From: an uncultured Spirochaetota bacterium | GTDB lineage: Bacteria; Spirochaetota; Brevinematia; Brevinematales; JAOACQ01 | Assembly (NCBI GenBank): GCA_963835575.1 | Contig: CAWIGG010000002.1 | Location: 576,001 to 640,000, forward strand | Length of the DNA stretch: 64,000 nucleotides | Direction: 5' to 3' | Part shown: positions 3,727 to 59,311 of the stretch, in pieces | Layout: every line of letters begins with the position of its first letter | Numbering within the stretch: the first letter of the stretch is position 1 | Notes under the pieces: generated by a model | What the model saw: only the letters and a program-made list of their open reading frames with translations | What the model was told of the DNA's origin: nothing | Database searches by the model: none | Translations under genes and position numbers: made by a program

Positions 3727-4476
3727 ATGAAAAGATTTTATCTATTTTTAGCCGCGGTTATATTTACCATCGGGATCTCAAAAGTTTATTCCATGACAGG
3801 GGAAGATGTTTTGGCCGGGGTTGAAGCGAAACTGTCAGCGCCTCAGGATATGGAAAGCAGAAGCGATATGGTTCTGGCAAATTCCGACGGCAGCGGCAGG
3901 GAAAAAAGAGTTTTGAAGATGTGGTCCGCGGGTAAAAAGAAAAGGCTTATCAAGTTTATTGAACCGGCCGGTATTGAAGGGATCGGTTTCCTGATGGAAG
4001 GGGATAATGAATTGAATCTTTATCTTCCGGCCATGAATAAGATCAGGAGAATAGAAGGCGGCGCTAAAAATGAGGACTTTCAGGGGACGGATTTTTCATA
4101 TAATGAGATGGCAAGCTATGAATACAAAAAGGATTATTCGGCCGAAATCGCATCGGAAGATTCCAATACCTATGTATTGAATTTAAAAAGGAAGAGCGGA
4201 TCGGATAAAAACTTTGATTCCATTAAGATGGTTGTGAATAAAATGAATTTAGTCCCTGAGAAAATAGAGCTTTATGAAAACGGGACGCTGAAAAAAATAT
4301 TAACCATCTCCGGGATCAAGGAAGAAGGTAAATACACCGTGCCGGTGAAAATAATGATGGAGAATGTTTCTAAAAAACATTTTACGGAAATCACCATGAG
4401 CGACATCAAATTTGACCAGGGACTTGAGGATAAGGATGTTTTCAGTAAAAGGTTTCTCAAGAAAAAAGCAAAATAA
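3727..4476 (+). CDS. Outer-membrane lipoprotein-sorting (LolA-like) protein
   Basis: Signal peptide; LYLPAMNKIRRI and FQGTDFSYNE motifs; usual MMPL partner; AGGAGG RBS. Confidence 0.85.
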   Translation: MKRFYLFLAAVIFTIGISKVYSMTGEDVLAGVEAKLSAPQDMESRSDMVLANSDGSGREKRVLKMWSAGKKKRLIKFIEPAGIEGIGFLMEGDNELNLYLPAMNKIRRIEGGAKNEDFQGTDFSYNEMASYEYKKDYSAEIASEDSNTYVLNLKRKSGSDKNFDSIKMVVNKMNLVPEKIELYENGTLKKILTISGIKEEGKYTVPVKIMMENVSKKHFTEITMSDIKFDQGLEDKDVFSKRFLKKKAK

Positions 4477-4501
4477 AATCGGAAATTTAAGATCGGGTAA
4501 T

Positions 4502-4671
4502 CCGCTAATGCACGCGAATATACGCGAAGAACTTCTGGGAATGGAAAACCACGAATATCACGAATTAACACGAATAGATTTGAACAGGAATAAGGAATGT
4601 GAATGTCTCAAAGGTCTTTATTAATATTTCAAGCAAATATATCTTAGCGTGACTTCGCGCGGCTTTGCGGA
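4502..4671. repeat. 9-10-nt-periodic inverted-repeat intergenic element
   Basis: ccgctaatgcacgcgaatatacgcgaa and aaccacgaatatcacgaattaacacgaat, with inverted partner ttagcgtgacttcgcgcggctttgcgga (4644-4671). Confidence 0.6.
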
Positions 4672-4738
4672 AGATCGAAATCTGTTATTGAAAGTGAAAA
4701 GATGCTGATAATATAAAATTATCTATGGAGGGACAATT

Positions 4739-6235
4739 ATGAATAAATATGGATTAATGATTTTTATACTTTTAATGATAACCGGATCATTCCATGCTCT
4801 GGATGTCAGCGGGAATTTCTCAACAGAAACAAGGTTTTCCCTGACGAACGGCGACTACCTGTTCAATCAGGAGAATGGGAGCCTTAAATTTGAACAGCAG
4901 GTTGATGACAACCTTTACGGCATGGCAAAGCTGGCCTTTAAATATTACGATAACCCGCATGGAAATACTACATATAACTCGACTTTAAACGCGGATGAGT
5001 TGAGCTCCCTCTATTCCCTGCAGCCGCTGGAAATATCCCTGGATGAAGCCTATTTTACCTATATGAATTTTATTGTTGAGAAACTGGACCTGACAGCCGG
5101 CAAACAGCGGATCACATGGGGTACGGCCGACAGGCTCAATCCGACCGATATCCTGAATCCCAATGATTATTCAGACCCTTTTGATTTCGGCAAAAAAATC
5201 CCGGTCCCGGCTGTTAATCTTGTTTATCATTTCCCTGCTCTGGAATCCAGCCTTCAATTGGTTTTTGAGCCCTATTCATCTGCGGCCAGGCAGAACTGCA
5301 TGATGATAAACCAGTTAAGAAGCGGGCTGTATGCCGGTATTATTTCTAATATGAATATGGGCGTGACAACTTTTCAGGATGCCTCAGCCGGCTGGCTTTA
5401 TGAGAAAGCGCTGACGCCTGAACCGAATCTTTCCAATTTTGCCGCCGGTGTGAAGCTGGCGGGAGTGATCGGCGGCTTTGATCTTTCGGTTAATTATGTC
5501 ACGCGTATGAACAATATGCCTTATGTGATGGAAGTCAATTTAGATACAAAAACGGAGCTATTGTTGAGTCCCGGACTCGCGACAAATGTCTCAATTGATT
5601 CAAAAGCCTATACTTTAGGGTTTTACAGGGAAAATGAAGTCGGCTTTGATTTTTCAAAAGACACGGGCTTTATGCTTGTGTGGGGGGAGGCGGCTGTCAC
5701 ATTTCCGGGCGAGCAGAAAACCGTTACAAAAATTAATAATACTTTGATTATCGATGCACCGCTTCCTGGCGCCGGCAGCTATTTTATGCCGCAGACAAAT
5801 GAAGCGGTAGTCATTTCAAATGAAGCTTATGTCAAATATACGGTAGGGTGTGATAAGAGTTTTGAGGGCGGCTGGTATATCAATTTTCAATATAACCATG
5901 GTTTTTTTAATGAAAGAGGGAATGCCGGCCCTGAAAGGCTGCAGGATTATTTTCTGATACGGCTGGAGGAAAGATTATTAAGCGATAAACTGAAATTCGC
6001 CCTGACCGGATTTGCCGATATAAATAACCTCGGGGATGCTTTCAAAGCCGATGATTTCGGAGCTTATGTCAGGGATAACAGCGGTATATTAGGCCAGTTT
6101 TCCATCGCGTACAGCCCGGACCCGAGCGTCACGGTAGAGACGGGTGTGTACGGTATTGACGGAACTGATAATACAAGCCTTGGGGAAATGAAAGACTATG
6201 ATATGGTTTATATAAAGTTTGATTATAGTTTTTAA
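4739..6235 (+). CDS. Putative outer-membrane beta-barrel (DUF1302-like)
   Basis: Signal peptide; GKQRITWGTADRLNPTD motif; C-terminal YIKFDYSF barrel signal; operon context. Confidence 0.75.
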   Translation: MNKYGLMIFILLMITGSFHALDVSGNFSTETRFSLTNGDYLFNQENGSLKFEQQVDDNLYGMAKLAFKYYDNPHGNTTYNSTLNADELSSLYSLQPLEISLDEAYFTYMNFIVEKLDLTAGKQRITWGTADRLNPTDILNPNDYSDPFDFGKKIPVPAVNLVYHFPALESSLQLVFEPYSSAARQNCMMINQLRSGLYAGIISNMNMGVTTFQDASAGWLYEKALTPEPNLSNFAAGVKLAGVIGGFDLSVNYVTRMNNMPYVMEVNLDTKTELLLSPGLATNVSIDSKAYTLGFYRENEVGFDFSKDTGFMLVWGEAAVTFPGEQKTVTKINNTLIIDAPLPGAGSYFMPQTNEAVVISNEAYVKYTVGCDKSFEGGWYINFQYNHGFFNERGNAGPERLQDYFLIRLEERLLSDKLKFALTGFADINNLGDAFKADDFGAYVRDNSGILGQFSIAYSPDPSVTVETGVYGIDGTDNTSLGEMKDYDMVYIKFDYSF

Positions 6236-47229: not shown

Positions 47230-47730
47230 TTATGTTTCTTTCGGCTCTTTCACTTCCGTGTCTCTTTCCCAGCCTTCATTCTGTATTACTATTCGTTCAA
47301 TGGCTATAGCGTTACAATTGGCATCAAGATCCACCATGGCTTCATATTCCGATACCCAGCATCTATAGATTATATAAGAATGGACAAGAGCGCCCTGTTC
47401 ATTAAATAAATCGATGTTGATGTCTTTTCTGTAATTTTTGAGAGACATGGCAGAATCGCCGGCCATATTATGTACAAAATTTGCCCAGTCTTCAAAAGCT
47501 GTATCCTGTGTGATACCGCGTTCCAGAATGATGGGACTGTATTCAGTCGTACCGGGTGAACGGCGGAGCAGGCTGGGGTCACCTCCCTCCCTGTGGCAGA
47601 TTACTTCAGTTGTTCTTTTCAAGCCGCTTATTTTTGATACGCCGATCACATATTTTCCATCCCAATTGACCTTGAATTTAAAATTTTTGTAGGGATCAAA
47701 ACGGTGCGTATTAACTGGGAACCCAGACAT
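47230..47730 (-). CDS. Phage/contractile-injection tail tube protein (T4 gp19-like, Afp1/Afp5-like)
   Basis: RFDPYKNFKFKV, REGGD, PGTTEYSPIILERG, FEDW, RKDINIDLFNE, CWVSEY; AAGGAGG RBS. Confidence 0.9.
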   Translation of the reverse strand: MSGFPVNTHRFDPYKNFKFKVNWDGKYVIGVSKISGLKRTTEVICHREGGDPSLLRRSPGTTEYSPIILERGITQDTAFEDWANFVHNMAGDSAMSLKNYRKDINIDLFNEQGALVHSYIIYRCWVSEYEAMVDLDANCNAIAIERIVIQNEGWERDTEVKEPKET

Positions 47731-47779: not shown

Positions 47780-49545
47780 GGCCCTGCTGAAAAAATTCAA
47801 ACACAAGCATAGGGGATATTCCGGCAAATTTTCAACCGCACAAGGAAAAAGATTAAGAAATCAAAGGCCATGTCGGCGGCAGCCTTCGATTTATCAGCCA
47901 AATAGCCCCGATATCTCTTGAAATTAATCCCGATTCCCCTTAAAAGCATGCGGGTTTTGACTTTTACCAGACCACGGAACAAAATCCTGCCGCTCAAATA
48001 CTTTGGTTTCAATAAACTCATCAATCCTTCTACGGCAGGGCGTAGTCCCATCAGAAATTTTCCTGCATCCATACATATCAATTCCAAAAATTCATCCATC
48101 CATTCCCTTTTGGCGTCTATTACCAGCCGACTTTGCTTCTTGCCGACACAGGCCAGACAATTTTCTTTCTTATCGCAGGCGGCACATTTTTTTACATCAA
48201 AATTCAATACCACGGAACCATCTTCATTTTCAATAATGCTATTCGGGATTTCTCCCGCCGGACACATCCCATATTTGCCGGTTTTTGGGTCTGTATACTC
48301 AGAAAGTTTCGCTTTGTTTTTTATCCCTTCCAGATCGACGCCGCGTATCGCGCTCATTACCAGTTGAACGTCTTCGCCGCTCTCATTCCGAAGGTCTTCA
48401 GAATTATAACCGCCATCGCTTATCGCTGTTTCAATATTCGTTTCCTTTTTTAAATTAGATAGTTGCCTGCGGAATAAATCCCCATCGTCAGCATTATTCG
48501 ATGCGGTTTCTATGCTGGTAATCACCTGCATCGGATTTTGAGGGTCACAGGTTTCAACCGCGTTCACCTTATACCCGACATACTGTTTTCCCCGCTTCTC
48601 CCGGTAGGTCGCGTCTTCGTCCACCGGCGACTGCATCGATGAGGCTTTGATTTCCCGCGGCAGCTTCAGCGTCACCTTGCCTTCTTTTTCTATCCGGCAT
48701 TGTTCCCGCAAAAGTCTCATTGCCTGCCGGAAACTCTTTTGTTTCCTGACTTTATTGTGAAACACGTTCTCTGTAATCAGCCCGAATATTTCCTCGCCAA
48801 TTTCCACCGTTTTCGATTCGTAATTCTCCTTTTTCAGTCGATAACTGAATCCGTCCTCATTTTGTTTTAGAAAATCCTTACATCTTTCACTTAAGGAAAA
48901 TCCAGCATTGGAAACATCTTCCGCCATATTGGACAACACTTTATGAAACAGCATAACCCGATTCAGCCGCTTGATATTGGCCCCAATCATTACAGAATCT
49001 GTCCTCTGCAGTCCGGTTTTGATCCCGACCTCTCCAATTAAAAGATCCCGAAACTCATCAAATATAACGTCAAAAAGCCCGTCCTGATTCTCCGCCACAG
49101 CGGCACGAAAATAGTATAACGTCCTGATCGACATCTGCTGCGCGTTGATGTCTTCCAATCCCAGCGCGTATCGAAACGATAAATCATATCGATACCGCTC
49201 AAACAACTGTTCATCGGTCAGAGAGAATAGCTCTTTCATGATTTCCAGCCCGGCTAATATGTTGACCGGGAAATTACTCCTACCAAGTTTTGGGTCATAT
49301 AGTGGAGCAAACTTCCGCTCATTTATTTTTGAGAAAACTTTCTGGTAAAAAAGCCCGGCCCAGCTTTCATTTAAACTTTCTCTCATTTCCTGGTTCATTT
49401 CATATCTTACCGGATATAAATCCTGTTCTATATGTCTCTGATTCAGCTTGAACATTTTGACCTCTCTCTGATTCATGTGCATATATTATAACGAGTTATG
49501 CAACTTTTGTACATGAATCGGTAGGATTGTTTTTGCAGTAGGGCC
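47780..49545 (-). mobile_element. IS1182/IS5-like IS
   Basis: 16-bp TIRs GGCCCTGCTGAAAAAA / GGCCCTACTGCAAAAA; flanking direct repeat ATCTAT (47774-47779, 49546-49551). Confidence 0.85.
47797..49455 (-). CDS. DDE transposase (IS1182/IS5-like)
   Basis: GRSNFP, RTDS, QSPVDEDATYR, DGGY, RPAVEG; ORF intact. Confidence 0.85.
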   Translation of the reverse strand: MFKLNQRHIEQDLYPVRYEMNQEMRESLNESWAGLFYQKVFSKINERKFAPLYDPKLGRSNFPVNILAGLEIMKELFSLTDEQLFERYRYDLSFRYALGLEDINAQQMSIRTLYYFRAAVAENQDGLFDVIFDEFRDLLIGEVGIKTGLQRTDSVMIGANIKRLNRVMLFHKVLSNMAEDVSNAGFSLSERCKDFLKQNEDGFSYRLKKENYESKTVEIGEEIFGLITENVFHNKVRKQKSFRQAMRLLREQCRIEKEGKVTLKLPREIKASSMQSPVDEDATYREKRGKQYVGYKVNAVETCDPQNPMQVITSIETASNNADDGDLFRRQLSNLKKETNIETAISDGGYNSEDLRNESGEDVQLVMSAIRGVDLEGIKNKAKLSEYTDPKTGKYGMCPAGEIPNSIIENEDGSVVLNFDVKKCAACDKKENCLACVGKKQSRLVIDAKREWMDEFLELICMDAGKFLMGLRPAVEGLMSLLKPKYLSGRILFRGLVKVKTRMLLRGIGINFKRYRGYLADKSKAAADMAFDFLIFFLVRLKICRNIPYACV

Positions 49546-49606
49546 ATCTATATTTATTAATAAATATCCTTGAAAAATCGGCGTAACAATATATAATATA
49601 ATCTGG

Positions 49607-50941
49607 ATGGTTGGAAGCGTGAAATTTTTGAAAATTTTCATTATCATACTTTTATGTGCCGCATCTTGCCTGATTTTCAGATTAGAAGGCTTCTCTATTA
49701 CAATATCTATAGACGGAATTAATGATTTTGACATGACTTCCAATGTAATTCTCACTTCCACTCCGGGTTATACTAACTGGATAACCTGGGACGATAATTA
49801 CCTGTACATAGGCTATTTCGGGACCGGTCTGGCGGACAATCTCGCTTCGACTATGCTCATAGCGTATTTTTCAACAAATACAAACAGCGGCGGCGCTTAC
49901 GGAGCTGTCTTTGACTCCCAGGGAGCGGTCCTGCCTTACAGGGCGGATTTTCTGTTCAGGTATGATACGACATATTCCTGGGACAGCGCCGTCTGGAACG
50001 GAACGGGATGGAACTGGAGCAGTCCATTCTCAATTACGCCTTCTTCCGATTTGATGACAAACGGCAGCTACCTGGAATTCCGCATATCAAGAGCGAACCT
50101 CGGCAATTCTCCGTACCTGGACTGTAATCTTTATATGGTAAAACCTTCAGGAATGTTCGGGGCTGTCCCGAATGTATCTTTTTCAGACGGCTTCGGCAGT
50201 TATATCAATACTTTTCTAAACTTCGGGACTGATTTCACGGAATCGAATATTATCAGTTCAAACGCAATTTATGAGGTTGTTGATACAAATCCGGTACTTT
50301 CTAATACTGTTTTATTTCCTTCAAACGGTCAAACGAATGTCTGGGGCGAACGGATCACGCTGACAAATTTCGCATGGCAGGCCATAGGCCTGAGGAATAT
50401 TTCTTATTATACCAATAATCATTATATGTTTACGATTTCCATTACGAATTATGAATCGAATTTTACCTGGGATATTGATACAAATGCTTTTCCGCCCGGC
50501 ACTTATGACATCTATTCCATGGCGAGCAATACTTCGGGCGGATTATCGTCCGCAACCAACACTTTTGTGATTTTATCAGCCCCCGATCTGGTAATCATTA
50601 AAACCGTTGATAACATCCAGCTCGGTTCCACTAATTTCAGCTGGCCGGGAGCGCTGATTCTATATAAAATCATGTACTCCAACCAGGGTGACGGATACGC
50701 GACAAATGTTGTCCTGTTTGAAAAGATTCCGGAGCATTCCACGTATTATACCAATTATCTCGGGGCTGCCACAACCGGCTGGGAAACCCAGTATGCGCAT
50801 ATTGATAATCCCGACCAGAGCTATGGTTCAACAGATTATGACAGCGACAATACGGGCGTCAAATGGGTCCGGTGGAGGAAAACAAGCATAGCTTCGGATG
50901 AAGATGACAGGACCATTTATCTGGGAGTAACTATTGATTAG
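49607..50941 (+). CDS. Exported protein: DOMON/CBM9-like N-domain + Ig-like domain + C-terminally truncated DUF11 domain (putative tip adhesin)
   Basis: Signal peptide; IDGINDF...ITWDDNYLYIG; PDLVIIKTVD...PGALILYKIMYSNQG...VVLFEKIP. Confidence 0.7.
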   Translation: MVGSVKFLKIFIIILLCAASCLIFRLEGFSITISIDGINDFDMTSNVILTSTPGYTNWITWDDNYLYIGYFGTGLADNLASTMLIAYFSTNTNSGGAYGAVFDSQGAVLPYRADFLFRYDTTYSWDSAVWNGTGWNWSSPFSITPSSDLMTNGSYLEFRISRANLGNSPYLDCNLYMVKPSGMFGAVPNVSFSDGFGSYINTFLNFGTDFTESNIISSNAIYEVVDTNPVLSNTVLFPSNGQTNVWGERITLTNFAWQAIGLRNISYYTNNHYMFTISITNYESNFTWDIDTNAFPPGTYDIYSMASNTSGGLSSATNTFVILSAPDLVIIKTVDNIQLGSTNFSWPGALILYKIMYSNQGDGYATNVVLFEKIPEHSTYYTNYLGAATTGWETQYAHIDNPDQSYGSTDYDSDNTGVKWVRWRKTSIASDEDDRTIYLGVTID

Positions 50942-51032
50942 CAATGAAATTGTACTTTGATATTGAAGATTCCGATAAATGAATTTTAATATTGGAATAG
51001 AAGTTAAAATTAAATTGAATATAAGGGAAATT

Positions 51033-52508
51033 ATGAAGCGGATAAATTTTATTGCTCTATTGTTACTAATGACCGGCGCTCAATTGTTTTCTGCGGTGAA
51101 AGTGCTGAGCGTCATCTCGGACCTAAAAGATTATAACAATCTGATTGACGGTAAAATGGATACTTACGCGTCCGGGAAAAAGGGAGATAATACGATTATA
51201 CTTCAGCTTGGGACTATGAAGTATATAAAAGACTTGAAAATATATTTAGAAGAACAGGCGCAGATAAAAAAAATTTCGTTATATACTTCAGATAATTTCA
51301 TAAATTGGAGTATTATATTAGAGAAGAGGAATCCGAATGAAAACATCCTTGACTTTCAATTAAAAAATACCGCAGGTCTATTTATAAAAATTGTGATCAA
51401 TTCCGATTCGGAAATTAAAATCAAAGAAATCGAGTGTTTTGATGCAACAGCGCCTAAAAATCAAATATTTAATATTAAAATCGACTCTATTATGGAAGAC
51501 TCTGTTGTACTTAATTGGGAAACGAAAATCAAGACAGAGGACTTTTTTGTCTATTCAAAGAAAGTGAACGGCACAAAAATGACATTGTTTGAAATGGATT
51601 ATAAAGAGAAACATTCCATAAAACTGAAGGGGCTTTTAAAAGGCACCGAATATGTTTTTAATATAATAAGCCAGTCCCCCGACGGAACAAAATTAGAAAG
51701 CGAGCCGATGGAATTCAGGACAAAAGGGACTCCGTTACCGGATATCTGGGAATTGAGAGCGGTCAATATCAACCCTTATACGGCCAAAATTTATTACCGC
51801 TCCAACATTCCCACAAAGTATGAAGTCTATCTGGGCCAAAATGAAAAAAAGCTGGATAAAATCATTGAAGAAGGTAAATTCAGCGAAGCGAGAGAATTTG
51901 ATATACTGGGGCTTCAGCCTGAAACAATATATTATTATAAAATAATTTTAAAGGACAAGCTCGGGAATGTGGCAATGACGCCGCCGCTCCAGTTTAAAAC
52001 ACCCGCGGATAATATCGCCCTGGGTAAAAGGGTTATCGGGACTTTTAATTTTATTGATGAAGATATTAAAAAAAGGGGGTTTGGAGAGACCACAGTCGAT
52101 AAGGTTGTGGACGGCAATCTGAATTATTTCGGCGGAATGGCAATCTCTTATAATGCGGACAATGCGGATCAATATGTTATAATTGACCTGGGAAAGTCTG
52201 AACCGGTAAAAAGGATTGATGTCTACTGGTGGGCTTTATCCTATTCAAGGGATTACAGGATCGAATTGAGCGAGAACGGCACTGATTGGTTTACTGCGCA
52301 AGAACATATTGACGCGGAAAAAGGGATTGATATTAATTCCCCAGGAGGCGATTATCTGGTTTATCAGTCGGTACCAATTAATAAAACCGCGAGACTGGTT
52401 AAACTGTTTGTTAAAGCCGGTAATTTGAGGGGCTCGAAGATTAAAAAATGGAACCCGCGTCCCAATTTGTATCTTTGTGAGATTGCGGTAATAAAAGAGC
52501 CCAAATAA
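51033..52508 (+). CDS. Exported discoidin (F5/8C)-FN3-FN3-discoidin protein
   Basis: Signal peptide; LIDG; LKGLLKGTEY and GLQPETIYYY (FN3); NIALGK...IDLG...SENGTDW. Confidence 0.75.
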   Translation: MKRINFIALLLLMTGAQLFSAVKVLSVISDLKDYNNLIDGKMDTYASGKKGDNTIILQLGTMKYIKDLKIYLEEQAQIKKISLYTSDNFINWSIILEKRNPNENILDFQLKNTAGLFIKIVINSDSEIKIKEIECFDATAPKNQIFNIKIDSIMEDSVVLNWETKIKTEDFFVYSKKVNGTKMTLFEMDYKEKHSIKLKGLLKGTEYVFNIISQSPDGTKLESEPMEFRTKGTPLPDIWELRAVNINPYTAKIYYRSNIPTKYEVYLGQNEKKLDKIIEEGKFSEAREFDILGLQPETIYYYKIILKDKLGNVAMTPPLQFKTPADNIALGKRVIGTFNFIDEDIKKRGFGETTVDKVVDGNLNYFGGMAISYNADNADQYVIIDLGKSEPVKRIDVYWWALSYSRDYRIELSENGTDWFTAQEHIDAEKGIDINSPGGDYLVYQSVPINKTARLVKLFVKAGNLRGSKIKKWNPRPNLYLCEIAVIKEPK

Positions 52509-52567
52509 AAAATTTATATCCAGTTTACTGTTTTTTTATATTCTCTTTTTTTGTAAGGAGGCCAGTT

Positions 52568-53656
52568 ATGAAAGGGAGAAGGGTTTTTGGTATTGTTGCC
52601 GGCTTGTTTGTGATTTTCCTTCTGGGTGTGGTGATTTTCATCCCCTGGGGAGGCAGCAAACTTGGAGCCGCAACAGGCGCCGGTATTGTCCTGACAAACA
52701 TAGTGCAGGTGAACTGGAACAGCGGCGCTATTGCTATGTCGACGAATGCCACTAATGTCGGCGCTGCTGTAGGAACAAACTATGGCATGACATGGATCGG
52801 GATAACAAACCAGAATGTTGTTTCCGGAACGTCTGTTTCCAACGAAACAATTCTTTCCAATGATGGGAATGCTACCGCGGACTTTATCCTGACCTTCAGC
52901 AGTAATACTTTTCCAAATACCAGTTCAGTAAACTGGTCTGCGGTTTTTACCAATGAGGCCGGAGGCGCAAGCAGCGGTAATCTCAGGGTTACGCTGGCCC
53001 CATCCAGTTTTGCGAATATCCGCCTTTTCATTTCAGTTCCCAACACTGAAACGAACGGAGCCTTTATCATCTTTCAATGCTTTTCATCCAATTCGAATGC
53101 CGTTGCCGAAATCGGCACAGCCGCCACAAACTATGTCGGTTATAACGGTATTCCTTACGGAGGCGACATGGGAAGATACGGAGCTCCTGTAGGCGAAGCA
53201 TTTCTTTCCAATGCTCAGCCCAATTTTACGAACTGGATTGTCACAACGATTTTTGCCAATATTTTGATTTCAAAAACCGCCGATATCAGCAACGCGGCTC
53301 CTTTTATAGCCAATACGACAATCCCATTCCCCGGAGCCATTATAACATACAGGCTCGGTTTTACAAACTCAGGCATGGTGGCCGGAAATTCCGTACGGAT
53401 TATTGATACGATTCCCACAAATGATCTTTTGTATGTTAATAATTCTCTCAAGAAGGGTAATTATGCGACCACTTTTGCCAATTACGGGACTCTTACGGCT
53501 CTTTTAGACACCCCGGGAGATGATGACGGTTCAACGAATCCTACGGCTGCCGACCAGATTATTTTCTGCCCGACAAACGGCGTTGCTCCTTTGACCGGCG
53601 GCGATATTCAGTCCAATGACGCCGGCGCTTATTACTACAGAACTTATTTGAAGTAA
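52568..53656 (+). CDS. DUF11-type exported protein (putative major pilin/shaft)
   Basis: AAGGAGG RBS; signal region, then ATGAGIVLTNIVQV; C-terminal ILISKTAD...PGAIITYRLGFTNSG...IIDTIP. Confidence 0.72.
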   Translation: MKGRRVFGIVAGLFVIFLLGVVIFIPWGGSKLGAATGAGIVLTNIVQVNWNSGAIAMSTNATNVGAAVGTNYGMTWIGITNQNVVSGTSVSNETILSNDGNATADFILTFSSNTFPNTSSVNWSAVFTNEAGGASSGNLRVTLAPSSFANIRLFISVPNTETNGAFIIFQCFSSNSNAVAEIGTAATNYVGYNGIPYGGDMGRYGAPVGEAFLSNAQPNFTNWIVTTIFANILISKTADISNAAPFIANTTIPFPGAIITYRLGFTNSGMVAGNSVRIIDTIPTNDLLYVNNSLKKGNYATTFANYGTLTALLDTPGDDDGSTNPTAADQIIFCPTNGVAPLTGGDIQSNDAGAYYYRTYLK

Positions 53657-53684
53657 TCTTGCTTGATTTATTGTCTAATTGTTT

Positions 53685-53770
53685 ATCAGGAAAGGAATTT
53701 TGCTAATTTTTAAATTATGGGACATTACTACAGATTCTAAGAATTCATTCCTGGGATATTCCTTCCTGAT
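53685..53770 (+). other. Inverted repeat downstream of the putative major pilin gene
   Basis: atcaggaaaggaat ... attccttcctgat. Confidence 0.45.
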
Positions 53771-53903
53771 CCGGGTTAATAGTTAATATACCCTAATTAA
53801 TAAGACAAATCTTCCCTGATAGCTGGCAGAGGAAAAAGAGATTAATTAATAAAATATAAATACTATAGATAACACGGGGGATTAAGGTTAGTGGAATAAG
53901 ATT

Positions 53904-54911
53904 ATGAGATATCTGCTGATGGTTTTGTTCTTAGCGGTAAGCATTGATTTCTATGGGAATGTCAAGTTAATCGGCAGGGACGGCTGGTATGCGCAGGTTG
54001 AGATCAATAAAAGCCTTTTTAAAAATTCCCCCGCCGTTTTTTTAATTTATAACAATCAGATAACAAATACTTTATTCCTTCTGGAGGATGATGCTAACCG
54101 TCTCTTTAAGCTGAATATTGATGACGGTCTTTATGATTATGTCATTTATGATATTGAAAAAAAAGTTCTGGAAAAGGGAAAGCTTGATTTAACAGAACCG
54201 TTTAAGTTTAATATTAAGACAATAGGTTCTGATAATATTGAAGTTGAGATTAATACAAAAGATTATGAAAATATAGAAGCCAGCCTGTTGCTCAGTAATA
54301 AAATCCTTAATAATAAGAAATTAACTGTCAATAAAAGTAATATCATCAGATTTGAGAATTTGGGATCCGGCACTTATTACAGACTGGAATTGACCTCTAA
54401 TAATTATTATAAAAGTAAGGGATTTAAAACACTGCTTAAAAACATCGCCTTGAATAAACCGGTATACGGGACTTTTACAAAATTGCCGGAAAGCAGGTTT
54501 GTTGACGATACAACGCCTGTGATCAGAAGAATTAATGACGGCAGGCTGGAATGGTATAAGGGAATGGCAGTCAGCGGCGAAGTAAATTCAAGCGATCAAT
54601 ACGCTTTTATCAATTTGCTCGGTATGGAGGAACTGAAGGAAATAAAAGTGTACTGGCATGCCTATTATTATCCGCTTAAATATTCTTTTTATTACAGCAA
54701 AGATGGGACAAACTGGAATTATATTGAAAGGAGTACCAATCAATTTTCCAATAATGTAGCAGGCGACAACACGCCGCTCATAATCGATGATATAATGACA
54801 AATATAACAGCGTATTATATCGGTATTATTGTTAAAAAAGGGGAAAAGATAAATAACAGGCTGGCACTGAGGAATTATCTTGAATTGTTGGAGATTGAAG
54901 CCTATGAATAA
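53904..54911 (+). CDS. Exported FN3-discoidin protein, paralogous to 51033-52508
   Basis: ENLGSGTYY; NIALNKPVYGTF...GMAVS...SDQY...VYW...SKDGTNW. Confidence 0.72.
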   Translation: MRYLLMVLFLAVSIDFYGNVKLIGRDGWYAQVEINKSLFKNSPAVFLIYNNQITNTLFLLEDDANRLFKLNIDDGLYDYVIYDIEKKVLEKGKLDLTEPFKFNIKTIGSDNIEVEINTKDYENIEASLLLSNKILNNKKLTVNKSNIIRFENLGSGTYYRLELTSNNYYKSKGFKTLLKNIALNKPVYGTFTKLPESRFVDDTTPVIRRINDGRLEWYKGMAVSGEVNSSDQYAFINLLGMEELKEIKVYWHAYYYPLKYSFYYSKDGTNWNYIERSTNQFSNNVAGDNTPLIIDDIMTNITAYYIGIIVKKGEKINNRLALRNYLELLEIEAYE

Positions 54912-56130
54912 ATGGTTGTTTTGTTTGGTTCTTCTCCTGCCGATCAGCCTTTCTGCCGCTACAAGATCCGGCACTGTCTTCACAAATACCGCCAGAATAT
55001 ACGGCGGCCCTTATGTTATAGACCAGACGAATGTCTTTTTAACAGCAGGCTCTATTTACGGCCTCAGTGCTCTGATTTCTACGACAAATGTATATATCGG
55101 ATATCCGATTTTTACTTTAAGAATACCCTTCAGCATAACGAATTTAGGCAACGATGCCGACAGCAATGCCCAGATATTTGTGGAACTCCTCAGCAACAAT
55201 CCGGGATATGCCGCAAGCGCCTGGAATTATTCCATTGAAGTAAGTTCCGTTACACAGGGAACAAATTACGCGATACCATACGCCAGCTTCGGAGAAGGGG
55301 CTATTTTCAGTTTCAACCTGGTTGTTTACATTCCTGCCGATTGCCCGTCCGGTTCCAGCGGTTTTTTCAGGGTTATTGCGTCTACTCTCAGTAATACAGG
55401 GCATGTCGCCGCTCAATATACAGGTTATAATCTTCTAAACTACGGAGGCATAGATACCGCCTCAAATGATATCCGGATCAATATTAATCTGCCCAATCAA
55501 ATAACAAGCATTTTCGGCACTGATGGTATTGATACGATCAACATTTTTAATGGCTTGTATGGTCTCCGCAGAACAAAAAATTCAATCACCCTTAATCTCG
55601 CTAATGCGCCATTCAATTTAAACAGTCTGTATCTATGGTATGCGGTTGACAGTCTGGCTGACGGTAGTTTTGGCCCTAATACGGCGGATACATCCGTGAA
55701 GATGACTACATTATCATCAAAACAATTCCAGGGTGATATTCCCGGGAACGCTCTATCCAAGGGTTCAATATTGTCTTTTGTTTTTGAGATTGATGGAGTA
55801 ACGTATTTAACGAATTTAACATACAGGCTTTTGGACCTGGGATCTCAGGATAATTATCAGACTGTTCTTATGCATAATGTTATTGATTATAAAAGCGGAG
55901 ATTATCTCTATATAAAACTCCCGGACAAACTGATGGGTAAGGAAGGGAAAGTCTATATATTCTCTATCAGCGGCGACCTGGTCTATATTATGTCTACGGG
56001 GAATCTGGATCAGCAGATATTAAAATGGAACGGTATGGATAAAACAAAGGCCTGGGTTGCAAAAGGCATGTACTTTATAGTGATAGATTTTGCCGATTTA
56101 AAGGAAGTCCGCAAGGTTTATGTTAAATGA
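54904..56130 (+). CDS. Exported pilin-related protein with a FlgD-Ig/T9SS-CTD-like C-terminus (putative base/anchor)
   Basis: Signal peptide, then ATRSGTVFTNTARI; middle resembles 52568; C-terminal VYIFSISGDLV...WNG...VAKGMYFI...RKVYVK. Confidence 0.7.
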   Translation: MNKWLFCLVLLLPISLSAATRSGTVFTNTARIYGGPYVIDQTNVFLTAGSIYGLSALISTTNVYIGYPIFTLRIPFSITNLGNDADSNAQIFVELLSNNPGYAASAWNYSIEVSSVTQGTNYAIPYASFGEGAIFSFNLVVYIPADCPSGSSGFFRVIASTLSNTGHVAAQYTGYNLLNYGGIDTASNDIRININLPNQITSIFGTDGIDTINIFNGLYGLRRTKNSITLNLANAPFNLNSLYLWYAVDSLADGSFGPNTADTSVKMTTLSSKQFQGDIPGNALSKGSILSFVFEIDGVTYLTNLTYRLLDLGSQDNYQTVLMHNVIDYKSGDYLYIKLPDKLMGKEGKVYIFSISGDLVYIMSTGNLDQQILKWNGMDKTKAWVAKGMYFIVIDFADLKEVRKVYVK

Positions 56131-57683
56131 TAAAGGGATTTATGAATAAAAAGTTTATCATTCAAAAATCCATACTTCTTATAATAGCATCGCTTTTCTT
56201 TGTCAATTCCTTGATGTTCCCGGCCATCACTTCCGGTTCTGATTTTCAAAAAATCCCGAAAAGCGCCAGGGCTATCGCACTTGGTGAAAGCTATACCGCC
56301 GCTATTGATGATATTGCCGCTATTGATTATAACCCGGCGGCGCTCAATACAATGAAAAATATTGGGTTTTCTTTGATGTATCAAACCTGGATTGACAACA
56401 GCTTCGGTGCTTACGGGGCGGCGGGTTACAGGCTTGGGTCATTTGTTTTTGGAAGCAGCTTCTATTATCTGAACTACGGCGGTTTTAAGGAATATGATTA
56501 TTTCGGAAATTATGTTCAGAGTTACAATCCTTGTGATATGAATCTTAAACTGGCGGTATCCGCCGATGGAGGCATTCTTGCCGAATTCTTGAAAGGCCTG
56601 TCCATAGGAATGTGTGTTTCAGGGATTTACAGAAGCCTGCTTGATGATTATCAGCTGGGGATGACAGTGGATGCCGGGATTCATTATAAAACAACGCTTT
56701 CAAAACTGCTTCAAATTAATGATGAATACTTCAATGAAACGGTCGGCTTTATGCCGATCAATGCGGGCTTTTCCATTCAAAATATTGGTTTTTCGGGTGA
56801 ATTTATGGCGCCTCTTAGAATGAATGCAGGTATTTCAATAGGCCTGTTCCGCGATTTTTTTCTTTCTTTTGATATATCCAAAGATTATAACGATACCCCC
56901 TTAATGTTCAAGTGCGGAGCAGAATACACCCTTTTTGATATACTTTCAGTCAGATGCGGTTTTAATATCGGTAAAGACAGCGGTAATTTTTCGGCCGGAT
57001 TCGGAATTAAATACCCGTTAATCTTTGACAATCTCCGTTTTGATTATGCTTTTTCACCGCTGGGGGTCATGGGCAACAACAACAGCTTTTCCATTTATGG
57101 GGAATTTCTATTCGGTAGGAATTATGATGACTATTTCAGCAAAGGATTATATTATTATAATAAACAGGATTACTTAAAAGCAAGAGAGTTATGGAGAAAT
57201 GCTTTGAATTTAAGCCCGAAAAGCGAAGAAGTCATCAGAAAATTAAAAAAGGTAAATGAAATGATTGATTATAACCTTTTAGATCCGGATAGATTAAAAT
57301 CAACAAACACATTATATATATCCCAGCTTGATTCAGTCAAATCAGGCGTTTCAGTTAATAATCAGTTTGCCGCTTTTCTTATTATAACAAAACGAGATAA
57401 TGTGACAAATGTATCCCTGACCGGCGATTTTAATAACTGGAATATTAATAATCTGCAGTTAAAAGCGGATAACACCACGGTACTCTCCAATACTATCTGG
57501 AGTATAACCCTTAGGTTGATGAAAGGCGTTTATATGTACAAGTTTGTGATTAACGGTTCAAAATTTGAATACGACATGAATAATCCCGTCTTTACTCCGG
57601 ACGGCAAAGGCGGAACCAATTCAATTTTACTGATCGAAACCTCAGATTCCAATCAGACTAAAACAATGGAAACTGCCGAATAA
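56127..57683 (+). CDS. PorV/PorQ-like (FadL-type) barrel + TPR + CBM48-like domain
   Basis: SARAIALGESYTA, YNPAAL; DYFSKGLYYY...WRNALNLSP; GDFNNW...YKFVING...NNP. Confidence 0.82.
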   Translation: MIKGFMNKKFIIQKSILLIIASLFFVNSLMFPAITSGSDFQKIPKSARAIALGESYTAAIDDIAAIDYNPAALNTMKNIGFSLMYQTWIDNSFGAYGAAGYRLGSFVFGSSFYYLNYGGFKEYDYFGNYVQSYNPCDMNLKLAVSADGGILAEFLKGLSIGMCVSGIYRSLLDDYQLGMTVDAGIHYKTTLSKLLQINDEYFNETVGFMPINAGFSIQNIGFSGEFMAPLRMNAGISIGLFRDFFLSFDISKDYNDTPLMFKCGAEYTLFDILSVRCGFNIGKDSGNFSAGFGIKYPLIFDNLRFDYAFSPLGVMGNNNSFSIYGEFLFGRNYDDYFSKGLYYYNKQDYLKARELWRNALNLSPKSEEVIRKLKKVNEMIDYNLLDPDRLKSTNTLYISQLDSVKSGVSVNNQFAAFLIITKRDNVTNVSLTGDFNNWNINNLQLKADNTTVLSNTIWSITLRLMKGVYMYKFVINGSKFEYDMNNPVFTPDGKGGTNSILLIETSDSNQTKTMETAE

Positions 57684-57750: not shown

Positions 57751-57954
57751 TTATGCTGTTACATCAAGCTTTTTGCCCAGTGTTTCCTTCGGAAGAACTG
57801 GATTAGAGCCGCCGGATTTATTATCCGCATCCCTTTGAGATTTAGCCTGGGCTGATCTTTCGGCGGCTTTTTTATCTTCCATAGCCTTCATTCCTTCCTT
57901 TTGCTTCTGGGCGGTGGTTAATTCTTGAAACTGTTGAGCGGGAGAAATAATCAT
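57751..57954 (-). CDS. Small hypothetical protein
   Basis: 67-aa ORF with AAGGAGG RBS; ends GKKLDVTA. Confidence 0.65.
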   Translation of the reverse strand: MIISPAQQFQELTTAQKQKEGMKAMEDKKAAERSAQAKSQRDADNKSGGSNPVLPKETLGKKLDVTA

Positions 57955-58048: not shown

Positions 58049-59311
58049 TTACTTTAATTCCAATGTTACCAGTGTTTCGATATGATAGGTATGAGGAAAC
58101 ATATCAACAGGCTGGCAGTAAACCGCTTTATAATTTTTCCCCGTCAGGATCAATAAATCCCTGGCAAGCGTTTCGGGAGAACAGGATATATAGATTATTT
58201 TTTCAGGCTTAATCCGTAAGATTTCTTTTAATACTTCAGGCTCACAGCCGGAACGCGGCGGGTCTAAAATCACAGTTTGAAACATTCCGGTATTTAAATC
58301 TTTTAAAACGTATTTTATGTCGGAAGCGATGAATTCCGCATTTTGGATTTGATTTATTTTAGCATTTATTCCTGCGAACTTTATGGCGGCTGGATTATTA
58401 TCGATCCCCAGGGCTTTATGCGCTTTTGCCGCGGCCGGGAGCGTAAAGAATCCCGATCCGCAGTAAAGGTCCAGCACATCGCCGGTTACATTTACAAGGG
58501 ATTTATCGATTAAATTTAACAATATGCCGGATTGATCATAGTTTGTCTGGAAAAAGCCGTTCAGAGGTATCCGGTAAAGGTAATCGCCGGTTTTCTGTTC
58601 GATATAATCCCTGCCTGAAATTGTATGATATTCCCGGTAACTGGCTGCTCCTATGCCTTCAATAGTTTTAATATCTTTTATAATTCTACTGCCGATTTTA
58701 TTGATCTCAGATTGAAACCTTTTTACGAAAAAGCAGATGCCCGTTTTACCTTCCTCACTGCTTCTTATGTGCGCTTGAAGAATCACTTCGGGAAAATGAT
58801 ACTTCTTCAGTTTTTCATAAACTTTATTATTTATTTCCATTTCCTGGGGGCAGTTGTCCAGTGTGATTGTTCTTTTGGAACTTTCCTGCATAAATACAAG
58901 ACTGCCGTGTTCATTGAGAAATGAAAACTTATTACGGCAGACGGCCGGATTCTTCATGCCGATTATTTCATTAACTTCAATATTGATTTTACTTTTGATT
59001 TTAAGCATATCGCAGAGTATTTCTCTTTTCCAGAAAAGCTGTTCCCTGTATCCGATATGGAGCCACTGGCATCCGCCGCAGCCGTTTTCAAAGGCGTTAC
59101 AGCCGGATTTAACCCGTTTTTCAGAAGGTTTTATGATTTTTAAAAGTTCTCCTCCGGCGTTATTATTATTTATCCTGTTGATTTTAATTTTCACTCTGTC
59201 GCCTGGAATTGTTCTTGGAACAAAAATAGTATTATTATTGAACTTTGAAACTCCTTCTCCATTTTGATTGAGTGATGAAATTTCAGTTTCTATGATTTCA
59301 TTTTTTAACAT
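58049..59311 (-). CDS. rlmD: 23S rRNA m5U methyltransferase (RlmD/TrmA family)
   Basis: TRAM domain, CGGCQW, FFQTN, DLYCGSG, DPPRSG, YISC, DMFPHTYHIE. Confidence 0.9.
   Translation of the reverse strand: MLKNEIIETEISSLNQNGEGVSKFNNNTIFVPRTIPGDRVKIKINRINNNNAGGELLKIIKPSEKRVKSGCNAFENGCGGCQWLHIGYREQLFWKREILCDMLKIKSKINIEVNEIIGMKNPAVCRNKFSFLNEHGSLVFMQESSKRTITLDNCPQEMEINNKVYEKLKKYHFPEVILQAHIRSSEEGKTGICFFVKRFQSEINKIGSRIIKDIKTIEGIGAASYREYHTISGRDYIEQKTGDYLYRIPLNGFFQTNYDQSGILLNLIDKSLVNVTGDVLDLYCGSGFFTLPAAAKAHKALGIDNNPAAIKFAGINAKINQIQNAEFIASDIKYVLKDLNTGMFQTVILDPPRSGCEPEVLKEILRIKPEKIIYISCSPETLARDLLILTGKNYKAVYCQPVDMFPHTYHIETLVTLELK

Follow-up and report, generated by a model that had tools for sequence, protein, structure and literature searches.

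A candidate modular surface fiber assembled from split DUF11/CLIPPER domains in a Brevinematales spirochete

The stretch of DNA analyzed here (the window; 64,000 nucleotides (nt), positions 576001-640000 of contig 2 in a 4.39 Mb, 94% complete genome) belongs to a free-living spirochete relative of the order Brevinematales and contains, at 49607-57683 on the forward strand, a single operon of six genes. In the interpretation that we consider rather probable, this operon encodes a modular surface fiber whose tip, shaft and base subunits are joined by complementation of a split DUF11/CLIPPER domain, with the joints probably sealed by isopeptide bonds and the fiber anchored on an outer-membrane barrel. 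Such a structure would amount to a fibrillar-adhesin stalk cut into pieces, with the DUF11/CLIPPER immunoglobulin-like (Ig-like) domain divided between genes. The gene order is tip, F5/8-fn3 protein, shaft, F5/8 protein, base and PorV/PorQ-family barrel. The first four genes are separated by gaps of 37, 59 and 247 nt and the last three are joined by overlaps of 8 nt (second F5/8 protein and base start) and 4 nt (base stop and barrel start), and each of the six products begins with a hydrophobic signal-like region.

The domain at issue, DUF11, was renamed CLIPPER in 2025; in the crystal structure 9IFR it contains an intramolecular Lys715-Asn806 isopeptide bond with Asp748 as the catalyst, as described in the portion of the report available to us (PMC12617251). 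The shaft subunit (52568-53656, +; 362 residues) combines N-terminal donor strands, a middle Ig-like domain and a C-terminal acceptor domain. Its donor element, residues 35-71 (52670-52780, +), directly follows the presumed signal-peptidase site at A34, opens with the strand ATGAGIVLTNIVQV (residues 35-48) and includes N44 (52697-52699). The acceptor domain, residues 226-362 (53243-53653, +), is a truncated DUF11/CLIPPER domain with K236 (53273-53275) and D280 (53405-53407), bearing the motif ILISK..PGAIITY..N.G..IIDTIP and ending in YYYRTYLK. When the six proteins were scanned against Pfam and NCBIfam at curated cut-offs, the shaft scored 32.8 bits to TIGR01451 (cut-off 24; residues 248-298) and, below the cut-off of 24.6, 16.9 bits to PF01345, over positions 9-61 of the 114 in that hidden Markov model (HMM). 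Matches to PF01345 end at HMM position 54-61 of 114. The shaft family is small: 5.8 billion proteins contain only 15 clusters of it at 90% identity. When a profile was run against 1.84 billion representatives, about a dozen further proteins of approximately 350 residues appeared, and the remainder of that list consisted of giant DUF11-repeat adhesins. An alignment of 31 unique shafts from many assemblies (A3) was assembled, and all 31 terminate at the same aromatic-rich strand, before the Asn-bearing strand.

The tip subunit (49607-50941, +; 444 residues) comprises a signal region, a variable head, an Ig-like domain and an acceptor-only C-terminal domain. The latter, residues 314-444 (50546-50938, +), is again a truncated DUF11/CLIPPER domain, with K332 and E372 and without the Asn strand; its motif reads LVIIK..PGALILY..LFEKIP and the chain stops at YLGVTID. 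Its DUF11 scores lie below the cut-offs (17.1 bits to PF01345, cut-off 24.6; 18.5 bits to TIGR01451, cut-off 24), and the orthologous tip of locus L021 reaches 28.6 bits to PF01345. The same 134-residue domain ends all seven tips, with the tip-domain HMM matching through to the last residue in 7/7. The Lys is kept in every one of them and so is the acid, which is Glu in the window tip and Asp in the other six. Outside these last 134 residues the orthologous tips, 435-1805 residues long, differ in their heads, which include CBM53 (in the giant tips), lamin-tail, Rha78A-type Ig and Big_7 domains; in more distant Spirochaetota loci the head is a beta-helix/NosD array with a propeller. For the window tip head, Pfam gives a weak Big_7 Ig match only, and the top match in an Atlas search was an unnamed cluster (0.91), with CBM9/glucodextranase-type matches at 0.79-0.86 that serve as leads only. 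Nothing marks the tip as a lipoprotein, there being no conserved Cys or lipobox across the tips.

The base subunit (54904-56130, +; 408 residues) has a donor-only N-terminus, a CLIPPER-like middle domain, an Ig-like domain and a type IX-style C-terminal domain (CTD). The donor strand, residues 19-33 (54958-55002, +), contains N28 and reads ATRSGTVFTNTARI over residues 19-32; its [TS]N motif is kept in 7/7 bases, and N28 in at least 90% of 20 base sequences. BLASTP aligns the middle domains of shaft and base at 25% identity over 190 columns (E 1e-6), and the shaft-family HMM spans base residues 15-198. An AlphaFold2 monomer model computed from the alignment of 20 base sequences (A4) has a predicted local distance difference test score (pLDDT) of 78 and is confident except at residues 1-5 and 15-50, the donor region at 15-50 having pLDDT below 50 and no secondary structure. 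In structural comparison with VIA-align, the modeled middle domain matches the CLIPPER crystal structure 9IFR with Z 9.3 (root-mean-square deviation (rmsd) 2.9, 114/123 residues aligned). The CTD, residues 316-408 (55849-56127, +), matches the PorZ CTD 5m11_A (Z 9.6, rmsd 2.8, 86 residues aligned) and the NucA CTD in the type IX secretion system complex 8glk_D (Z 9.2, rmsd 2.1, 75/75 aligned). By sequence, the CTD has weak CHU_C and Por_Secre_tail matches, all below cut-off (CHU_C, 21.1 bits against 27; TIGR04183, about 17-21 bits against 23).

A preliminary description of this DNA had assigned complementary halves of one DUF11 module to these three proteins, and most of what it said of them holds. 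The shaft does carry both the N-terminal strand and the C-terminal DUF11-like domain, with the quoted strings in place; the base has the quoted strand and, by BLASTP, a middle domain resembling that of the shaft; and the DUF11 assignment is borne out by the shaft score to TIGR01451 and by the L021 tip. The tip indeed has only the truncated C-terminal domain, but for the carbohydrate-binding-like head ascribed to it only the weak Big_7 match and the Atlas leads were found. Likewise, the secretion-type CTD of the base is recovered at the level of fold but not of sequence score.

Where the N-terminal strands belong is indicated by long proteins, found in the search of representatives, in which the shaft module is repeated within one chain. 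In P0042, BLASTP places shaft residues 228-361 at 688-813 and shaft residues 38-361 at 818-1114, leaving the shaft C-terminus and the mature N-terminus four residues apart. An HMM of the A3 alignment yields abutting matches in P0042 (690-814, then 818-1115), in P0045 (758-885, then 897-1189) and in P0051 and its longer form P0164 (195-299, then 307-611), and it matches P0120 at 28-139, 145-424 and 451-707. Across these fused relatives the distance from shaft C-terminus to mature N-terminus is 3-11 residues. Because the two ends are this close, the N-terminal strands belong to the preceding domain, and the shaft gene boundary therefore divides a tandem DUF11 array inside one domain, separating the body of that domain from its last strands. 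The tip-type domain recurs as well: in P0051 and P0164 it occupies residues 1017-1138 and is followed 18 residues on by a donor module (1156-1436 and 1156-1444, respectively), and P0042, P0045 and P0164 all terminate in a truncated domain of this type. P0042 (1808 residues) starts with a signal region and a donor module and continues through a beta-helix region and internal fused shaft modules to its tip-type acceptor end; it could be a very large subunit that both donates and accepts.

The truncated domains were mapped onto a canonical DUF11 model of 125 positions built from the 27 natural repeats of the adhesin P0022, in which the consensus residues K16, D50 and N105 are spaced to within two residues as K715, D748 and N806 are in 9IFR. 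Shaft D280 and tip E372 align with the canonical Asp, shaft K236 corresponds to the canonical Lys when mapped via P0042, and tip residues 340-383 cover canonical positions 18-61 (26.8 bits). The tip chain stops at about canonical position 94 of 125, ahead of the Asn strand. In P0120, the strand next after the truncation point matches the Asn strand of the canonical model, weakly (10.5 bits, with the E-value taken over 11 sequences). The Lys/acid/Asn triad is found at canonical positions (K236/D280 in the shaft, K332/E372 in the tip, N44 and N28 in the donors), with the Asn placed by this weak alignment together with colinearity. Neither tip nor shaft holds a complete DUF11 domain in one chain; its last strands sit at the N-termini of shaft and base.

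Conservation follows the same division. N44 is kept in 29 of 30 shafts, the exception having Q with N one residue earlier, and the 31st sequence is without its N-terminus; in a set of 18 shaft sequences, A34, T36, T43, N44 and W50 never vary. Of the 31 shafts, 29 have K236 and 29 have D280, and the same two sequences are without both (M/G and L/N). From the alignment, this joint loss is the pattern that would be expected of a functional pair, although the two sequences look related and may reflect a single loss event. The gene boundaries and motifs repeat in 31 unique shafts, 7 tips and 7 bases, which places the split pattern above chance. Eight of the 35 genomes from the order, the window genome included, encode the shaft, and the seven other Brevinematales loci all have the same gene order, five of them complete and two limited by their contigs: L023 meets a contig end after the fourth gene, and L027, from a 73%-complete genome, begins at a contig end and has its shaft (4210-5203, -) split into two overlapping frames, which is either a frameshift or an assembly error.

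We modeled two copies of shaft residues 35-362 with the 31-row A3 alignment. The interaction prediction scores from aligned errors (ipSAE) were 0.60, 0.55 and 0.43 (median 0.55) versus 0.00 for the best of three controls, with partner pLDDT at or above 83 and with the runs agreeing on 90% or more of their contacts. The prediction thereby passed the mark for a complex, which is reached by 20/30 proteins solved as pairs of one chain versus 1/23 solved as single chains, counts that apply here only approximately because a custom alignment was used. The interface is asymmetric, formed by residues 85-88, 159, 229-288, 347 and 360-362 of one copy and residues 35-71, 101 and 184-197 of the other, and the predicted pair is an open head-to-tail arrangement that leaves one donor and one acceptor free. 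The donor residues touching the C-terminal domain of the other copy are 35-37, 40, 42-55, 57, 59-63, 65-69 and 71. Acceptor K236 and D280 both contact donor residue 46, two residues from N44 and on the same strand face. No sequence relative in the PDB was found for the shaft, the shaft profile or P0045, with only trigger factor appearing at E about 2, so the dimer result is independent of a close solved homolog. In the AlphaFold2 monomer model of the shaft, the C-terminal domain has pLDDT 80-90 and the strand at 40-50 about 57. Foldseek found generic tandem-Ig matches only (template modeling score (TM) at most 0.23), and VIA-align gave a best Z of 8.6, with CnaA-like pilins and adhesins (CNM N2, BcpA, GBS104, Mfa5) at Z 6.3-7.2, which is not decisive.

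These results bear on the central proposal of the preliminary description, namely that the missing Asn strand is donated by the next subunit, and the predicted dimer, the fused junctions and the conservation all support such an arrangement. In the modeled homo-oligomer the N-terminal strand completes the partner fold, as had been anticipated, and K236 and D280 lie against that strand two residues from N44. Folding of the strand back into its own chain, named there as the contrary outcome, is not seen in the models, where shaft residues 35-71 lie on the domain of the other copy and base residues 15-50 are unstructured. The expected set of acceptor-only, acceptor-and-donor and donor-only proteins is kept in 5/5 complete Brevinematales loci, and the two contig-limited loci are consistent with it.

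The means of anchoring is suggested by the last gene of the operon (56127-57683, +), which encodes a 518-residue outer-membrane barrel of the PorV/PorQ family with a tetratricopeptide repeat (TPR) and a CBM48-like tail. The barrel scores 99.3 bits to NF033709 (cut-off 90; residues 36-323), is below the specific equivalog cut-offs (PorQ, 56.9 bits versus 220; PorV, 32.2 versus 250) and has Pfam matches to TPR_2 and AMPK1_CBM. A second CTD/barrel pair is located outside the window at contig 2 positions 700304-709383 (L051:4305-13384), where the gene for a 2600-residue protein ending in a FlgD-Ig/type IX-like CTD precedes the gene for a 420-residue PorV-like barrel (PorV family model, 31 bits); this genome thus pairs a cargo with a barrel of its own more than once. 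In Porphyromonas gingivalis, PorV and PorQ keep PorU and PorZ in place at the surface, according to the available portion of the report (PMC5562754). Given the CTD fold match, the PorV-family barrel, the second pair and this precedent, the base CTD and the neighboring barrel are most likely an anchor pair that would root the fiber in the outer membrane. The barrel tail at residues 336-507, with its TPR and CBM48/AMPK-type glycan-binding region, is present in the window and its two closest relatives (518-649 residues) and absent in another family of the order (382-383 residues).

Known assembly machineries were searched for across the 94%-complete genome. It contains no sortase (PF04203; three Gram-positive controls positive), no usher (PF00577; E. 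coli control positive) and no PapD-type chaperone (PF00345; E. coli and Deinococcus controls positive), extending to the genome what the preliminary description had stated for the locus, and there is no LPXTG in shaft, tip or base, whose C-termini are YLK, TID and VK. No PorU above cut-off was found in the genome, the model matching only CTD-like ends at no more than 25 bits versus 420. The GldM model had no match in the genome and was silent in the controls too, GldK, GldL and GldN not being searched for; SprA_N from Pfam also had no match in the genome and none in the controls, so both results are uninformative. An open reading frame of 1891 residues outside the window (L050:4919-10594; contig 2, 522918-528593) scores 68.5 bits (E 2e-19) to the SprA model TIGR04189, for which the cut-off is 200, and has no Pfam match. 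This SprA-like gene occurs in 16/35 genomes of the order, in 8/8 that bear the operon and 8/27 others, a comparison whose weight is limited by kinship. A type IX-like translocon in Spirochaetota would, if true, be noteworthy by itself.

Taken as a mechanism, Sec export and cleavage at A34 would expose the donor element of the shaft at residues 35-71. Donor elements (shaft 35-71, base 19 to about 50) would complete the truncated CLIPPER domain of the subunit ahead, joining subunits head to tail by complementation with a donor strand or, probably, a hairpin. The tip, with its variable binding or enzymatic head, would only accept; the shaft, in one or many copies, would accept and donate; and the base would only donate, giving the order tip, shaft(s), base. 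Each joint would place the acceptor Lys and Asp (Glu in the window tip) beside the donor Asn and would probably be sealed by an autocatalytic Lys-Asn isopeptide bond, so that an ancestral intramolecular bond would now be formed between chains. The base CTD would most likely dock on the co-transcribed PorV/PorQ-family barrel, much as PorZ does on PorQ. The subunit architecture, its conservation, the fused junctions and the predicted interface are direct results of the comparisons and models, and the mechanism built on them proposes the cleavage site, bond formation, shaft copy number, anchor contact and export route.

Several observations weigh against this mechanism. The fiber is a prediction from genes and models. 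The complex score expresses the self-confidence of a model on a 31-row custom alignment, and models of this kind have learned the general pattern of donor-strand pairing. N44 is inside the touching stretch but outside the 25 best-defined pairs, and the N-terminal strands alone give no significant match to the canonical DUF11 model (base E 5; shaft misaligned), because an isolated strand is too short. The AlphaFold2 monomer of the shaft is poor overall (pLDDT 64, predicted TM score 0.40), and in that model the N-terminal strand may rest against the middle domain, since several fold matches span shaft residues 34-180. The hydrophobic N-terminus of the shaft could instead be an uncleaved membrane anchor. 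Tip and shaft are without a C-terminal secretion domain, and their crossing of the outer membrane is therefore unexplained; export of a pre-linked chain via the base CTD is speculation. The role of the two conserved F5/8 proteins is likewise unexplained in a fiber model.

Among the rival explanations, one that deserves serious thought, even if we would not bet on it, is a strand-complemented fiber without a covalent lock, held by beta-strand pairing only as chaperone-usher pili are, with Lys, Asp and Asn as inherited structural residues. The bond is absent in some DUF11 domains, as stated in the available text of PMC12617251, and the two shafts without Lys and Asp still have the donor Asn and an otherwise intact fold, which means that the architecture functions in the absence of that pair; moreover, the triad contacts are predicted and do not place N44 among the best-defined pairs. 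The covalent version has in its favor that K236 and D280 are lost together rather than separately, perhaps in one event, that the residues map to crystallographically proven triad positions, and that K236 and D280 contact the donor strand beside N44 in the model. An object shorter than a pilus is also conceivable, although we judge it unlikely: a fixed three-part stalk, or segmented adhesin, in which tip, a single shaft and base associate 1:1:1 or as a short series of fixed order through the same complementation. The locus has a single shaft gene and no length-control or termination factor, tandem distinct shaft paralogs in distant relatives (L036, L037) suggest ordered heteromers, and the giant fused relatives hold several modules per chain. 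Set against a fixed length are the donor and acceptor ends of the shaft, the open-ended homodimer in the two-copy prediction, whose free ends could extend, and the shaft-shaft junctions that appear as fused repeats in P0120.

The remaining two readings do away with the fiber altogether. If the proteins were circularly permuted monomers, stand-alone surface proteins in which the N-terminal strands of the shaft complete its own C-terminal domain, this would accord with the self-complementation common in isolated donor-strand pilins. We nevertheless regard this as very improbable: the incomplete domain of the tip and the orphan strand of the base, both conserved in every complete locus, would go unexplained, and a model given two copies chose the trans arrangement. 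Furthermore, only 3-11 residues separate the strand from the preceding domain in the fused relatives, and the strand then leads directly into the middle domain, a topology that would leave no linker to lead back past a whole Ig domain. That a single giant adhesin gene has merely been broken by frameshifts or assembly errors is brought to mind by the existence of fused giant relatives and by the L027 shaft in two frames, and its probability is close to nil. A hydrophobic signal region opens each piece, the pieces are separated by unrelated F5/8 genes, and 31 unique shafts drawn from many assemblies share the same starts and stops.

The two exported F5/8 proteins occur in 7/7 related Brevinematales loci. 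Accessory protein 1 (50979-52508, +; 509 residues) consists of an F5/8-type C domain, two fn3 domains and a further F5/8-type C domain (F5_F8_type_C 67.6 bits, fn3 40.4 bits). Accessory protein 2 (53904-54911, +; 335 residues) has an N-terminal beta region and an F5_F8_type_C match of 30 bits. Within that beta region, at approximately residues 45-60, all eight orthologs carry an [ILMAV]TN motif (e.g. NQITNTLFLL) that is loosely like the donor strands.

Beyond the order, the shaft was sought in 401 sampled genomes of the phylum, 17 of which have a match at E 1e-15 or better, 9 of them outside Brevinematales. In eight loci from these nine more distant Spirochaetota genomes, the shaft has an F5/8 gene as its immediate neighbor in 4/8, a CTD-bearing protein directly follows the shaft in 3/8, a PorV-like gene follows in 1/8, and in 2/8 the shaft adjoins a giant protein whose chain ends in a truncated DUF11-like domain (BLASTP, Pfam). 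Closer to home, the operon and the SprA-like gene are both missing from the four other genomes of the window's genus, and for this reason the operon may have been horizontally acquired.

Both flanks of the operon are occupied by opposite-strand genes, a DDE transposase of families DDE_Tnp_1_6 and DUF772 directly upstream (47797-49482, -) and a tRNA methyltransferase downstream (58049-59311). A sigma-70-like site, TTGAAA-16-TATAAT, at 49570-49597 (+) matches 11/12 consensus positions, is the best of the region and ends 10 nt before the tip ATG, marking a possible operon promoter; it is a consensus match only, of a kind found 40 times versus 29.5 expected from shuffles. A hairpin with a T run that resembles a terminator, a pattern match only, lies at 57851-57864 (+), 168 nt after the last gene. 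In the 247-nt gap after the shaft gene, RNA structure is not unusual (z +1.11) and no terminator-like site was found. Further upstream, at 47230-47730 (-) and adjoining a prolyl-tRNA synthetase gene, a 166-residue protein matches the T4 gp19 tail-tube family at 132 bits and could be part of a prophage or a contractile injection system.

Chaperone-usher, type V, TasA/BsaA and archaeal systems all provide examples of donor-strand fibers, and autocatalytic isopeptide bonds are known within single adhesin chains. In chaperone-usher pili (type 1 Fim, P pili Pap), the adhesin tip has only a groove, the shaft has both groove and donor, and the last subunit only donates, the N-terminal extension of each incoming subunit completing the Ig fold of the previous one. 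The proposed fiber would share this logic of parts and, by prediction, the N-terminal donor. It differs in the lack of an usher or PapD-type chaperone in the genome, in another subunit fold family, in a probable covalent lock and in a type IX-style CTD with a PorV-family barrel as the presumed anchor. Type V pili (FimA/Mfa1) use a C-terminal donor strand whereas the donor element here is N-terminal, and no FimA/Mfa family is among the Pfam matches of the six proteins. With the published CLIPPER domains (PF01345, TIGR01451, 9IFR) the subunits share family membership, triad positions and spacings; there, however, the triad is intramolecular, within one chain among the tandem repeats of a giant protein in the text available of PMC12617251, and here the Asn strands start another polypeptide.

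Exchange of an N-terminal segment followed by locking has been proposed for BsaA of Clostridium perfringens, a TasA-family protein: the segment inserts into the beta sheet of the next subunit, an intermolecular isopeptide bond forms, and mutants lose oligomers, according to the accessible part of the preprint (PMC11580942). The similarity is one of mechanism only, as BsaA has a Gram-positive host and SipW- and type IV pilus-linked secretion, with no tip/shaft/base set in that part of the preprint (PMC11580942), and the Pfam scan of the six proteins gave no TasA/camelysin family match. The archaeal thread Saci_0406 is likewise a donor-strand-complemented fiber, for which intermolecular isopeptide bonds are proposed and which has no dedicated sortase (available text of PMC9715654). 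Its bond differs, joining the N-terminal amine of Asp24 to Asn57 of subunit n+2, and the thread, as described there, is archaeal, with no Pfam domain, no division into tip and base and no outer membrane (PMC9715654). The type IX pairs PorQ-PorZ and PorV-PorU of P. gingivalis offer a surface protein held on a PorV/PorQ-family barrel, and PorZ is the best CTD-fold match of the base (for the pairs, PMC5562754 in part). The present system departs from them in having no PorU over the cut-off, only a distant SprA-like protein, a spirochete host and, as the object to be anchored, a proposed multi-subunit fiber. A-ENA fibers are auto-crosslinking, in the part of the report available (PMC13111695). BsaA, the archaeal threads, chaperone-usher pili and A-ENA fibers are the closest mechanisms in print, and none relies on splitting a CLIPPER domain or on anchoring of the type IX style. 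Our literature searches returned no description of a split-CLIPPER fiber, and the main text of the CLIPPER paper is without the terms 'split', 'strand complementation' and 'truncated' (PMC12617251).

The engineered pairs SpyTag/SpyCatcher and DogTag/DogCatcher are split isopeptide domains that form their bond spontaneously on reconstitution, as set out in the available part of PMC8878318. They place the reactive strand on one part and the rest of the Ig-like domain on the other, as is the case here; they differ in being laboratory splits of Gram-positive adhesin domains, whereas the split described here appears natural and would chain subunits. A bolder version of our interpretation, which we put forward tentatively and with considerable doubt, is that the operon specifies a natural counterpart of SpyTag/SpyCatcher, a fully covalent pilus made by a double-membraned bacterium without sortase, usher or chaperone. 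The base, as the sole subunit with a type IX-style secretion domain, would then be both the handle by which a SprA-like translocon exports the pre-linked chain and the anchor on the dedicated barrel.

If the split-domain fiber is real, it would represent a new assembly class for two-membrane bacteria, in which subunits are chained by splitting an isopeptide domain between them. It would also explain how fibrillar-adhesin stalks can be modular, with the exchangeable heads of tips of 435-1805 residues borne on one acceptor module, and it would provide natural orthogonal tag-and-catcher pairs for protein engineering. For the spirochetes themselves, the operon suggests that type IX-like surface anchoring extends to Spirochaetota, beyond the phyla from which that system has been described.

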